From Escherichia phage HY03: a DNA stretch of 64,000 nt. Numbering within the stretch: position 1 is the first letter of the stretch; every line of letters starts with the position of its first letter. The stretch lies in the sequence record NC_031047.1; one strand, written 5' to 3'. The translations under genes and the position numbers were made by a program. Below, piece by piece: positions 4,010 through 45,263 of the stretch. The notes beneath the pieces were generated by a model. The model saw nothing but the letters and a program-made list of their open reading frames with translations, ran no database searches and was not told the origin of the DNA.

Positions 4010-4722
4010 TATAGTACCTTTAGTGTATTTTTAATTTTAGAAAAAAGTTCTTCAAGAGAACCATCGTTTGTAATTACTAAATCACCATCACGAATTGGCA
4101 ATCCAGCTTCTGTAATATGAGTATCATTGGATTTTTGACCAGGACGAACTACATGAATTACTGTAGCACCCATCGCCCTAGCCGCATCCATTTCATGATC
4201 TTGACGAGTATCAGGAACGATATAATAATCATAACCTGAGTTAAATTTATCAAGATAATCTAAAGCAAATAATTTTACCCAATACATGCGGTCGAAGTTA
4301 TTAACAATCAAATCCGTACCTAGGGCTTGCATCAGACGACGGACTGACCATTGATCTTCAATATTATTTATAACGTCAGCAATCTTGTTAAATGCTACGA
4401 AATTAACTGCGTCATCAAAAACAAACACACCTTTAATTGGGCTTTTACTATTAAGATAGCAAAATGCTTGTTCCATAATCGTAATTACTTCTAATTTAGT
4501 CAGATTTAAATTAGTTTCACGATCATAGTCAATTCCTTCAAACTCTTTACGAGTTAAACAAGGATAGTCAGTGTTTGCTGCAAATACACCCCATGCATAA
4601 GCCAATGCATCCTTAATAGGACCAGCAAGTTGATATTTAACTGCAGAATAATTATTCATAATAAAATCAGCAGTAGTATCTTTTCCACTACGCTTTACAC
4701 CACTTAAAAAGATTAGTTTCAT
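4009..4722 (-). CDS. 1: dNMP kinase (gene 1)
   Basis: 237 aa; P-loop GVKRSGKDT; T4 gp1-like size and position. Confidence 0.9.
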
Positions 4723-4771: not shown

Positions 4772-5302
4772 TTAAACTTCTGCTATAATTTTTCCATCTT
4801 TTTCTACTTGAAAATACGTATAAGGAATCGTTGCAGTACATACTAAAGCCGGGTCTGAATCTTCTGTGTAGCTAAATTCTACTTCAGATAGGTCAGAAAC
4901 CCAAGGCTTATAAAAATTTATTGACATCACGATTTCAGTTTTGCTATTATCTAAGATGTAAAGCGTAATGTACTCAGGACCTGTTTTTTGGGCAGTATTT
5001 TCACCTGTAAGATAGTTGCTAGTTCCTAGCATCCATTCATACATTCCTATCCACGACTTAAGTTCTTCATCAACTATAAATCTCACGATGAGTGGGTCAT
5101 ACTCAAATGTAACACCTGGACGTTGTGCTCGGCCCAGTCCAAACGGCCCAGTCACGGTATCAGTAACAGGTATTCTAATTCCTGGAATAGGAACTGACTG
5201 AGCATTTAAAGTAAAAGCAGATGTAGTATTACTATGTGGTATTGATACTACAAAGTTAGTTGTATTTGCTTGGTTAAAAATTTGTTGCAGAGCTTGCGAC
5301 AT
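4772..5302 (-). CDS. 3: gp3 tail completion / sheath stabiliser
   Basis: ORF 4772..5383; T4 gp3 is 176 aa, so the start is probably the internal Met (MSQALQQIFNQ). Confidence 0.7.
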   Translation of the reverse strand: MSQALQQIFNQANTTNFVVSIPHSNTTSAFTLNAQSVPIPGIRIPVTDTVTGPFGLGRAQRPGVTFEYDPLIVRFIVDEELKSWIGMYEWMLGTSNYLTGENTAQKTGPEYITLYILDNSKTEIVMSINFYKPWVSDLSEVEFSYTEDSDPALVCTATIPYTYFQVEKDGKIIAEV

Positions 5303-5408
5303 ATATTCCTCATAATGCTTTATAACTGTTGGTGGTATAATGGGTCTAAGTCCCTTCCATTCAATTCCATTTAGAACAAACAATAGAAAAGAATGGAAGA
5401 TAATAGAA

Positions 5409-6083
5409 TTAATTTATTAGACTTCTTAAACGAGCAGAAGTCATAAATGGAAATTTTTCTAAAGTTGGCTTTCGCCAATATCTTGGATGACAAGTTGATT
5501 TAAAATCAAGAACAATTTTCTTTGCTTCATCAATAGTGTTAACTCCAAAGTTATCTAACATTATTTTCTTTTCTTTTTCCCACCGTTTATTAGCTAAAGC
5601 AGATTGAAGCTTTTTGTTTTTAAATGTGTCATTTTTTCTAGAATGAGTTGTTCCTTGTGTCGGACTCCATCCTCTTCCTAAAATAAATCCCTCAGGAATT
5701 ATATCTCCATCATGTAATTTTATACATCTTTTACCATTATTATAATATTTTCGTCCAGTTTGTGTATTTGAAATATTATTTGCATGTTTTCTTTTTAACC
5801 AACCATAAACTTTATTATTTCTCCTAACATATTTAGTTGAAACCGTCATTTTTATGGCTGCATAAGATAATTTTAAAGAATTTGGGTGTATTTTTACTAA
5901 TAGCTGATGTGCAACATAATGCTCTTCTGGAGTTAAATCAACCAAGTTAGAAGCATCATTACTACCGCCTAAACATTTCGGAATAATATGATGTCTTTCT
6001 TTATATCCAGTAAGGGCTCTATTGCGAGCCCTATCAATTAGTGAATTATAAATTTTTTCATAATTCATCGTACATTGCTCCAA
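5409..6083 (-). CDS. HNH homing endonuclease (Mob-type)
   Basis: 224 aa; HNH motif [29 protein letters not shown]; inserted between genes 3 and 2; N-terminal domain paralogous to ORF 44571..45263. Confidence 0.7.
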
Positions 6084-6892
6084 ACTTTGTTTGCAGAGAA
6101 ACGTTTTCCTTTGGAGTAGAAGCTTTGGAGTGGCATCAACACAACGTTCGCCCAGTCTTTCGGGGCGATTTCAACAAGGCTACCCATAATATTACCGGGG
6201 ATATATGCCTTAATCATTTGGTCTGCACCCCTAAATCCTTTCACTTGACTCCAATCAATTTTTAATTTCGTTTTATTAGTAATAGTAGGTGTATTTGAAT
6301 ATTGCTTTAAAAGCTCTTCTAGAAATTGCTGACGAGCTTTAGGTGGAATATAGTGCAAGTTTAATCCATACATTAAATTATGCTTACCTAAACCAAGGTA
6401 AATTATCAAAGGAAATTTATCCCAGTAAGGAAGAGTTTCCTTGTGTTTAGCATCATAAGCAAAAGCATATATTCGTCCCGGCTGCGGGCGAACAACCTTA
6501 TGTCCTTTTACTTGCTTAATAGTTTCAGCAAACCACTTTCTGGTTTTATTATTAATTGCTGCGCCTTCATTACGAATTTTATCGCGCAATGTTTGTCTGA
6601 ATGAATTTATCATAAGCAGTTGTCTTTCTTGCTTATTGAGTTTATTCATTGGTTTTGATTCAAGCTTTTGAATCTTTTCAGCCGTTTTAATTCCTGAAGC
6701 ATATTTTGACATTGCCGAAGTAAACGTAGAGTATTTGATTCCTCTTTCTTCAGCAAATTGCTTTCCTGTCATTCCTTTTGCTTTGGCCTTTTTATATTCA
6801 AGACCTATCTGAATCCATTTCTTTTCGTTTAATGATTGCTTAACCTTTGGAACTTGGGGAGTGCTTTCATTAATTATTTGAAAAATAGCCAT
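6065..6892 (-). CDS. 2: gp2 DNA end-protector protein
   Basis: 275 aa; T4 gp2-like size and position between 3 and 4. Confidence 0.8.
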
Positions 6893-7363: not shown

Positions 7364-7391
7364 GATAATATATTTATAAACAGGAGGGCCC

Positions 7392-43065: not shown

Positions 43066-44574
43066 ATGGATATTAAAGTACATTTTCACGACTTCAGTCA
43101 TGTACGCATCGATTGTGAAGAGAGCACGTTCCACGAATTAAGAGATTTCTTTTCGTTTGAGGCCGATGGATATAGATTTAACCCTCGCTTCAGATATGGC
43201 AACTGGGATGGACGAATCCGTCTTTTAGATTATAATCGTCTTCTTCCATTCGGCTTAGTCGGGCAAATTAAAAAGTTCTGTGATAACTTTGGCTATAAAG
43301 CCTGGATTGACCCACAAATTAACGAAAAAGAAGAATTATCAAGAAAAGATTTTGATGAATGGCTTTCTAAATTAGAAATCTATTCAGGAAATAAAAGAAT
43401 TGAACCACACTGGTATCAAAAAGATGCAGTGTTCGAAGGATTAGTTAATCGTCGTAGAATTCTTAATCTTCCAACATCCGCTGGTAAATCGTTAATTCAA
43501 GCTTTGCTTGCGCGATATTATTTGGAAAATTATGAAGGTAAAATTCTTATCATTGTTCCAACAACTGCTCTAACAACTCAGATGGCTGATGACTTCGTTG
43601 ACTATCGTTTATTCAGTCATGCAATGATAAAGAAAATTGGTGGCGGAGCATCAAAAGATGATAAATATAAAAATGATGCACCAGTCGTTGTTGGTACATG
43701 GCAAACTGTAGTAAAACAACCGAAAGAATGGTTCTCACAGTTTGGAATGATGATGAATGATGAATGCCATCTTGCTACAGGAAAAAGTATTTCATCTATC
43801 ATATCAGGTTTAAATAACTGCATGTTCAAATTTGGTCTATCTGGTTCATTACGTGATGGCAAAGCCAATATCATGCAGTATGTTGGAATGTTTGGTGAAA
43901 TATTTAAGCCAGTAACGACTTCTAAGTTAATGGAAGATGGACAAGTAACTGAGCTAAAAATTAATAGTATTTTTCTTCGCTATCCCGATGAGTTCACTAC
44001 TAAATTAAAGGGAAAAACTTATCAAGAAGAAATAAAAATTATTACGGGGCTTAGTAAAAGAAATAAATGGATCGCTAAATTGGCTATTAAGCTTGCACAA
44101 AAAGATGAAAACGCTTTTGTCATGTTTAAACACGTATCGCACGGTAAAGCTATTTTCGATTTAATTAAAAATGAATACGATAAAGTTTATTACGTATCAG
44201 GGGAAGTTGATACCGAAACCCGCAACGTAATGAAAACCTTAGCTGAAAATGGTAAAGGAATAATTATAGTAGCTAGTTATGGTGTATTTTCTACTGGTAT
44301 TTCAGTTAAAAATCTGCATCACGTTGTTTTAGCGCACGGTGTTAAATCAAAAATCATTGTATTACAAACAATCGGTCGTGTATTACGTAAGCATGGTTCT
44401 AAGACAATAGCAACGGTCTGGGACCTCATTGATGACGCGGGCGTAGTTTCTAAATCAAAAACATCTTCTAAAAAATACTCGCATTTAAACTATCTTTTAA
44501 AACATGGACTTGATCGTATTCAGCGTTATGCTGATGAGAAGTTTAATTATGTGATGAAAGAGGTTAAACTTTGA
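43066..44574 (+). CDS. uvsW: UvsW SF2 DNA helicase
   Basis: 502 aa; helicase motifs (PTSAGKS, DECH); T4 UvsW sequence recognised. Confidence 0.9.
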   Translation: MDIKVHFHDFSHVRIDCEESTFHELRDFFSFEADGYRFNPRFRYGNWDGRIRLLDYNRLLPFGLVGQIKKFCDNFGYKAWIDPQINEKEELSRKDFDEWLSKLEIYSGNKRIEPHWYQKDAVFEGLVNRRRILNLPTSAGKSLIQALLARYYLENYEGKILIIVPTTALTTQMADDFVDYRLFSHAMIKKIGGGASKDDKYKNDAPVVVGTWQTVVKQPKEWFSQFGMMMNDECHLATGKSISSIISGLNNCMFKFGLSGSLRDGKANIMQYVGMFGEIFKPVTTSKLMEDGQVTELKINSIFLRYPDEFTTKLKGKTYQEEIKIITGLSKRNKWIAKLAIKLAQKDENAFVMFKHVSHGKAIFDLIKNEYDKVYYVSGEVDTETRNVMKTLAENGKGIIIVASYGVFSTGISVKNLHHVVLAHGVKSKIIVLQTIGRVLRKHGSKTIATVWDLIDDAGVVSKSKTSSKKYSHLNYLLKHGLDRIQRYADEKFNYVMKEVKL

Positions 44575-45263
44575 ATTATAAATTAATATACGATAATTTA
44601 ATTAATAGAGCCCAGAATCGGGCTCGCCTTAATGGATACACTGAAACTCATCATATAATTCCTAGATGTATGGGCGGTACAGATGATAAGTGTAATTTGG
44701 TAGAACTAACAGCTGAAGAGCATTTTATAGCTCATAAACTTTTAGCTAAAATTCATCCAAACCATTACGGTATAATTAAAGCCGTTATATGTATGGGGAT
44801 GAATTCAAAAACTCATGAAAGACACGTTAATAAATCTTACGCCTGGGAACGTCGTAAAATGGCAGAACTTCAATCAGGTGAAGGTAATCCATTTTACGGA
44901 AAACACCATACGGAAGAACATAAACAATATATGTCAAAACTCATGAAAAATCGTCCAATTACGTGGGGAAGTAAAATTAGTAAAACTAAAAGAATGAACC
45001 CAACAAAATGGACTGAAGAAGCTAAAAGATTGCATTCTATCAATCAATCAGGTAAAAATAATGGCATGTATGGAAGGAAACATTCCGCTAAATCTATTCA
45101 GAAAATTAAAGATAACATGCCAGATAATTCAGGAGCTAATAACCCAGCTGCTAAACCTATAGAAGTAAATGGTGTTAAGTATAAATGCATGAAAGATGCT
45201 TCTAAAGCTACTGGATTATCAATGTACAAACTAAGAATACTTAGAAAAACAGTTAATTTATAA
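44571..45263 (+). CDS. HNH homing endonuclease (Mob-type)
   Basis: 230 aa; HNH motif HHIIPRCMGGTDDKCNLVELTAEEHFIAH; N-terminal 65 aa closely parallel ORF 5409..6083. Confidence 0.7.
   Translation: MNYKLIYDNLINRAQNRARLNGYTETHHIIPRCMGGTDDKCNLVELTAEEHFIAHKLLAKIHPNHYGIIKAVICMGMNSKTHERHVNKSYAWERRKMAELQSGEGNPFYGKHHTEEHKQYMSKLMKNRPITWGSKISKTKRMNPTKWTEEAKRLHSINQSGKNNGMYGRKHSAKSIQKIKDNMPDNSGANNPAAKPIEVNGVKYKCMKDASKATGLSMYKLRILRKTVNL

Follow-up and report, generated by a model that had tools for sequence, protein, structure and literature searches.

A putative Mob-type HNH homing endonuclease gene, free-standing at the end of gene 2 in a T4-like phage

Genes 2 and 3 of phage T4 are separated by a 106-nt spacer that is empty of annotated genes. 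In Escherichia phage HY03 (NC_031047.1) an additional reading frame lies at this junction, and an earlier note, made from the letters of a 64,000-nt stretch of the genome (the window), had read it as a mobile insertion encoding an HNH homing endonuclease. What does this frame encode, how did it come to lie between two structural genes, and how would it be maintained there? The comparisons below argue that the element is very probably a free-standing Mob-type HNH homing endonuclease gene (HEG), the same as RB32ORF146c, with the gene 2 stop codon as its precise point of insertion.

The reading frame and its junctions with genes 2 and 3

The six-frame ORF list contains the frame that the earlier note had described: 5409..6083 on the minus strand, 224 aa from a TTG start, including the protein motif quoted there and overlapping gene 2 (6065..6892, minus strand) by 19 nt. 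The TTG is, however, unlikely to be the biological start. RB32 annotates an ATG start and all orthologues begin MNY, so that translation most likely begins at the ATG at 6068-6066 and yields a product of 219 aa. The HEG then spans 5409..6068 (minus strand), with its TAA stop at 5409-5411, and the overlap with gene 2 shrinks from 19 to 4 nt. The coding strand around the gene 2 stop reads ...AGC AAT GTA CGA TGA ATT ATG..., and the HEG start codon and the gene 2 stop thus share the sequence ATGA (6065..6068, minus strand), an overlap presumed to couple their translation.

The frame is not open by chance, since its product matches PHROG 655 ('homing endonuclease') with an E-value of 1e-58 and 2885 database proteins at E<=1e-10. 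Its G+C content, 29.4%, is lower than that of gene 2 (35.7%) or gene 3 (37.1%). Both neighbors were assigned from PHROG and Pfam matches and from annotated relatives. Gene 2, upstream of the HEG, encodes the DNA end protector (275 aa); gene 3 (4772..5302, minus strand) encodes the tail completion/sheath stabilizer protein (176 aa). The most likely start of gene 3 is the ATG at 5302, which gives the T4-like length of 176 aa, rather than an upstream TTG at 5383. With this start, the spacer between the HEG stop and gene 3 (5303..5408, minus strand) measures 106 nt, equal in length to the T4 gene 2-gene 3 spacer and collinear with the whole of it.

To place the insertion, we aligned the junctions of the window, RB32, CT01, and T4. 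Relative to T4, approximately 660 bp are added between the last sense codons of gene 2 and the position of the T4 gene 2 stop. The TAA of the HEG aligns with the TAA of T4 gene 2, and the spacer and gene 3 beyond it are collinear and nearly identical. The neighboring kilobases differ from T4 by 0-6 substitutions per 100 nt. The claims that T4 has no gene at this position and that the element entered the late 4-2-3 structural block are therefore borne out: T4 has the empty spacer there and nothing else, and the flanks are undisturbed. Differences from T4 in the last 66 nt of gene 2 fall into two clusters. The first, an 18-nt stretch that we call tract A (6113..6130, minus strand), reads CTCCAAAGCTTCTACTCC in the window and CTTCAGCAGTTCGTTTCA in T4, changing LQQFVS to LQSFYS. 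The second comprises the final codons (6065-6083), TGG AGC AAT GTA CGA TGA in the window versus TGG TCA AAT ATC TAA in T4. Farther along, gene 1 (dNMP kinase) carries a 12-column indel relative to T4 at 4400-4499 and encodes 237 aa, compared with 241 aa in T4.

The gene itself is already known. Its protein is 100% identical to RB32ORF146c (ABI94970.1), which occupies the same junction, with the same ATGA overlap with gene 2, in RB32, RB33, vB_EcoM_112, fPS-2, ELT1, and others; the 2.2-kb region is ~99% identical in DNA between the window and these phages, and we found no substantive difference. RB32ORF146c is annotated as 'putative site-specific intron-like DNA endonuclease; similar to mobB; not conserved from T4 position', and later records name the product homing endonuclease, HNH endonuclease, or hypothetical protein. 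The gene has thus been annotated since 2006 in RB32/RB33 and then in many later genomes. A literature search for ORF146c or for its ortholog VR7ORF161c returned no papers, and we infer the activity and target site of the enzyme by analogy. Beyond annotation, the finding has limited meaning: the window is an RB32-like Tequatrovirus carrying a known Mob-type endonuclease gene. No phage record matches the 25-kb structural block at 9001-34000 of the window at 99% over its full length (the best reach 96-98%), and the top genomes for this block differ from the best matches of the gene 2/3 region. Judged by these matches, the window is a mosaic Tequatrovirus, not identical to RB32.

A shared nuclease domain and a C-terminal half found at one site

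The N-terminal domain (approximately residues 1-95; 5784..6068, minus strand) is a Mob-type HNH nuclease domain common to HEGs at many other loci. It contains the core motif H26 H27...N41...H50...H54 (5907..5993, minus strand), which aligns to the solved HNH domains in 6me0, 6ghc, and 8ydb. These five residues are invariant both in a 15-sequence alignment that includes the T4 Mob proteins and in an alignment of 30 homologues, and the window copy has them all. In blastp searches against the five T4 Mob proteins, the HEG matched MobB (45% identity over 126 columns, residues 1-114, E 8e-30), MobE (62% over the N-terminal 62 residues, E 1e-26), MobD (53%, E 9e-23), MobC (34%, E 1e-17), and the annotated MobA fragment (E about 2e-6). 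The alignments begin at or near residue 1 and cover 31-134 aligned residues at 34-62% identity; past HEG residue 128 these searches detected no similarity to any of the five.

Curated Pfam models match below their gathering cut-offs: HNH_5 scores 17.8 bits (cut-off 27.5, E 0.003) and HNH 16.5 bits (cut-off 21.4, E 0.009). The only NCBIfam match is a weak one to the HNH region of IscB, and a phmmer search of PDB sequences with the single HEG protein returned nothing relevant. A profile built from the family, in contrast to the single sequence, matched solved HNH domains among PDB sequences, namely the En domain of a group II intron maturase (6me0, 1.4e-4) and McrA (6ghc, 4.4e-4) and, more weakly, Cas8-HNH (6e-3) and pyocin AP41 (0.17), all over positions 22-56. 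In an AlphaFold2 model made with 30 sequences (mean pLDDT 89.7), a strand (24-27), a second strand (42-45), and a helix (47-60) are placed at the motif, a predicted ββα arrangement. The HNH assignment is, on the whole, sound at the family level, whereas the curated Pfam models by themselves fall short of it. Homology to T4 MobA-E, the invariant H26, H27, N41, H50, and H54, and the profile matches to solved HNH domains all uphold the Mob-type HNH claim. The earlier note had regarded a lack of HNH similarity in profile searches as grounds for abandoning that claim; the family profile does match HNH domains, with Pfam HNH remaining below its cut-off. The protein displays four features of a Mob family member: N-terminal homology, intact HNH residues, a C-terminus of its own, and an intergenic position with sporadic distribution.

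In the C-terminal half (residues 111-219; 5412..5738, minus strand), a β hairpin is followed by a linker of low confidence and then by a bundle of helices. This half is presumed to be a DNA-recognition domain specific to the lineage at the gene 2/3 junction. Neither NUMOD nor any other Pfam domain was detected in this half at E<=10. I-HmuI of Bacillus phage SPO1 is likewise an HNH homing enzyme with an extended nuclease plus DNA-binding build, and it nicks one strand; I-HmuI is, however, intron-encoded, whereas the HEG is not and has no detected NUMOD domains. We rejected an intron-encoded, I-HmuI/NUMOD-type origin on the grounds that the ORF lies between two intact genes, its flanks are collinear with T4, and no NUMOD domain was found.

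Searches with the whole protein and with its C-terminal half gave distinct results. The whole protein retrieved 1068 records by tblastn, mostly through its first ~95-115 residues and at many loci (next to nrdA, helicase, topoisomerase, and others). Residues 111-219 alone retrieved 76 records, all from T4-like phages. We read ten carriers out of these 76, from eight named genera plus two unclassified phages: RB32 (Tequatrovirus), Citrobacter phage Ursula, Escherichia virus TH55 and VR7 (Gaprivervirus), Erwinia phage Cronus (Roskildevirus), Acinetobacter phage Morttis (Hadassahvirus, Twarogvirinae), Kosakonia phage 305 (Kanagawavirus), Providencia phage PSTRCR_121 (Gualtarvirus), Serratia phage 4S, and Serratia phage SP1 (Muldoonvirus). 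All ten have their homologue at the gene 2 stop, ahead of gene 3. In all nine orthologs from other genera, the HEG start lies at most 2 nt from the gene 2 stop, in the contexts ATGA, TAATG, TGATG, TTGA, or TAATATG. VR7ORF161c and its orthologs in Cronus, Ursula, Kosakonia 305, Morttis, PSTRCR_121, 4S, SP1, and TH55 share the full-length, two-domain build of the HEG and have diverged about as far as the flanking genes; their gene 2 tails differ, so that details of the target site may differ as well.

Klebsiella phage KEN25_1 has a more remote homologue (43% identity) one gene off, upstream of gene 4. KEN25_1 (2001-2669) and PSTRCR_121 (1-218) have another homing endonuclease gene just upstream of gene 4, at the 53/4 junction, and in KEN25_1 the head-closure gene beside it is annotated as two pieces. 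The window itself holds a second Mob-type HNH ORF (44571-45263, plus strand; 230 aa), whose TTG start overlaps the stop of a uvsW-like helicase ORF (502 aa, 43066-44574). Its N-terminal 96 residues are 54% identical to the gene 2/3 HEG and its C-terminal half is different; other phages at similar matches carry the annotations 'homing endonuclease' and 'DNA helicase'.

Distribution, divergence, and decay

How old is the element at this site, and does it still move? Of the 517 phage records matched by the 2.2-kb region around the HEG, 35 span the whole HEG. A search with the 660-nt HEG on its own gives 36 records (~7% of 517), always at the gene 2/3 junction, the 36th being a remnant; three genomes are counted twice, once from GenBank and once from RefSeq. 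Among the full-length copies DNA identity is 98.6-100%, and in no fewer than 33 of the 36 carrier records the encoded protein is at least 99% identical to that of the window. Universal presence in T4-like phages, which the earlier note had named as speaking against an insertion, is not observed: the gene occurs in 36 of 517 records, and T4 is without it. Carriers are also mixed with non-carriers among the closest relatives. The best matches of the adjacent 25 kb include the carriers CJY920, CE1, ELT1, Pinarejo, KMB39, and ESh32, and mixed in with them the non-carriers pSe_SNUABM_01, pSs-1, ECp13, sb1-4, HP3, RB3/5/6/7/9/10, and RPN226. The reading of the HEG as a free-standing mobile element is supported, where 'mobile' is to be understood from this distribution and from family membership.

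Junctions that lack the HEG are clean, 246 nt long, and without a scar. That of Escherichia phage vB-Eco-KMB23 is 266 nt rather than 246 because it contains extra tandem copies of a spacer repeat, GGAATTGAAT, relative to the window (equivalent of 5340-5365) and T4. A scan of IMG/VR with a conserved 28-mer of the 3/2 spacer found three loci, all HEG-less; as these are too few for allele statistics, short-query BLAST counts were used instead. By such counts, the window-type 72-nt stretch that includes tract A occurs in 50-56 records (at >=95% and >=90% identity, respectively), compared with 36 that have HEG DNA. Escherichia phage vB_EcoM-RPN226 combines a carrier-type tract A with a T4-type gene 2 end and has no HEG; its sequence identifies it as a recombinant within ~35 nt of the insertion point. 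Roughly 14-20 records seem to be of this kind, with tract A and without the HEG. Linkage of tract A to the HEG is therefore not strict. Tract A was also rejected as a carrier signature across genera, since the gp2 tails of carriers vary (QSFYS, QSFQS, QQFVS, QAFYS).

Comparison between genera gives a different time scale. The HEG is 50-65% identical to its orthologs in other genera, compared with 43-59% for gp3, 42-65% for gp1, and 60-74% for gp2. Because this divergence resembles that of the flanks, the lineage looks old at this site and not like one that moved between genera recently, as far as such identities can tell; the same values fit long residence with loss as readily as they do recent spread. 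They raise the possibility that the HEG was present in an early T4-like ancestor and was inherited vertically with repeated loss, so that the empty junction of T4 is derived and there is little active homing. The shared site in 10 of 10 carriers from two subfamilies is in keeping with such a history, as is the match in divergence with gp3, gp1, and gp2. Within Tequatrovirus, however, full-length copies are at least 98.6% identical and are interspersed with non-carriers, the clean 246-nt junctions have the look of unoccupied sites (or of precise replacement by recombination), and RPN226 documents exchange right at the junction. We therefore consider purely vertical descent with loss unlikely. 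It and insertion do not exclude each other, as both are compatible with cycles of homing within each genus in which the gene is gained, decays, and is lost.

Several copies are decaying, as expected for a selfish element. In CT01 an internal deletion has spared ~45 nt at the start of the HEG and ~130 nt at its end, which form an in-frame ORF of 57 aa devoid of the nuclease motif. FL23 and FL44 have both lost one nucleotide of an A run, which changes the frame beyond residue 60 and is possibly a sequencing error, and the HEG of CE1 is missing one codon. In Salmonella phage Manna (PP987310.1, 72529-73824), a 1-nt deletion and substitutions at the 3' end of the HEG remove the stop codon; the annotated 431-aa ORF runs from the HEG through the spacer into gene 3 and is either a real fusion or a sequencing error.

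Among homing endonucleases, T4 mobA and I-TevIII are examples of defunct or dormant genes. The HEG, too, could be a dormant relic, an intact ORF whose enzyme cuts no extant allele and which persists by drift, hitch-hiking, or homing in trans. The broken copies in CT01, FL23/FL44, and Manna and the presence of the gene in ~7% of related genomes would be consistent with this state, and the ~14-20 HEG-less genomes with a carrier-type tract A could represent resistant alleles. Yet the window copy is full length and retains every invariant catalytic residue, the protein is at least 99% identical in at least 33 of 36 carrier records, and conservation of the C-terminal half across many genera suggests purifying selection on both domains. 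Dormancy thus appears rather doubtful, and we favor a homing endonuclease gene that is intact in the window.

Expression and proposed homing at the 3' end of gene 2

The HEG has no late-promoter consensus of its own. The nearest T4 late-promoter consensus upstream on the same strand, TATAAATA, precedes gene 4 (7371..7378, minus strand), and no other minus-strand copy lies between 7378 and 4372. Scans for sigma-70 promoters and terminators yielded nothing above shuffled expectation. A GGGCTC/GAGCCC hairpin at 6014-6031 is not claimed as a terminator, as no T-tract follows it and it overlaps conserved RAxxRA codons. The last codons of gene 2 contain a Shine-Dalgarno-like GGAGC (6077..6081, minus strand), a putative ribosome-binding site: a synonymous Ser change relative to T4, TCA to AGC, creates GGAG 9 nt before the HEG ATG. 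Together, the ATGA overlap and the upstream GGAG make a promoterless cassette, transcribed late with genes 4-2-3 and translated by coupling, the simplest reading; HEG translation is probably coupled to that of gene 2. This agrees with several T4 mob genes and with the lack of early promoters in phage homing endonucleases (PMC2988022).

These elements can be assembled into a model of intronless homing. The late promoter ahead of gene 4 would yield a 4-2-HEG-3 message that includes the promoterless HEG, whose translation would be coupled to that of gene 2 by means of the ATGA overlap and the GGAG in the final gene 2 codons. In a mixed infection with a HEG-less phage such as T4, the C-terminal domain would bind a conserved sequence where gene 2 ends or close to that point, and the HNH domain would nick or cut close by, as MobE and MobA nick their sites. 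Recombinational repair from the HEG-bearing genome would then copy the HEG and some flanking DNA into the recipient. The carrier genome would be protected by the insert, which may split the site, by the substitutions that cluster in the final 66 nt of gene 2, or by both.

Known systems suggest where the enzyme may bind. MobE nicks T2 nrdB and favors inheritance of its own gene (PMC2790892); nicking needs the HNH motif, and polymorphisms around the nick site separate carriers from non-carriers, whereas the two share the presumed binding site (PMC2790892, PMC2988022). By analogy, a run of codons close to the gene 2 end that is conserved from genus to genus, KGKR[FY]SA.KVW, is a candidate binding sequence, and tract A may be a patch that confers resistance or was acquired by co-conversion.

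It is possible, and we propose it tentatively, that the lineage has resided at the gene 2 stop since ancient times, strictly faithful to that site across T4-like phages, and that the 3' end of gene 2 has a triple role. The lineage, spread over at least eight named genera and two subfamilies, may have co-diverged with its flanks while always being joined to gp2 translation, and the 3' end of gene 2 may act as ribosome-binding site, as recognition site (the KGKR[FY]SA.KVW codons), and as resistance patch (tract A, 6113-6130). If true, the lineage would be a clean natural system for target choice by Mob-type HNH enzymes and for the origin of resistant HEG-less alleles such as that of RPN226. For the homing-endonuclease field its value is modest, in that one domain is paired with one site across many genera and natural decayed and recombinant HEG-less alleles exist.

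Long-term fidelity to one site, and a start codon tied to the stop codon of gene 2, an essential gene, throughout the genera examined, would also be compatible with a nuclease co-opted by the phage, beneficial rather than purely selfish, that excludes the gene 2/3 alleles of competitors or serves another late function. Marker exclusion between T-even phages is a known effect of homing endonucleases (PMC2988022). Against such a benefit, ~93% of close relatives, T4 included, do without the HEG, decayed copies are tolerated, and homing is the sole function that analogy supports here; we regard co-option as very improbable and retain the selfish homing gene as the preferred reading.

The two closest T4 counterparts illustrate what the HEG shares with the Mob family and what it does not. 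MobE, a free-standing HNH enzyme that has been studied experimentally, is encoded between nrdA and nrdB and, like the HEG, is promoterless and joined to its upstream gene. Its C-terminal region differs from that of the HEG, and therefore so does its target; its locus is an early nucleotide-metabolism operon, whereas the HEG resides in a late structural one; and mobE has an internal terminator, whereas a consensus scan of the HEG coding strand found none. MobB, encoded between alpha-gt and alpha-gt.2, is the best T4 match of the HEG (45% over residues 1-114), which accounts for the 'mobB-like' annotation. MobB, however, has 264 aa, a C-terminal half unrelated to that of the HEG, a different locus, and its own promoter (PMC2988022). 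The label 'mobB' on the copy in CAM-21 is, by position, a misnomer.
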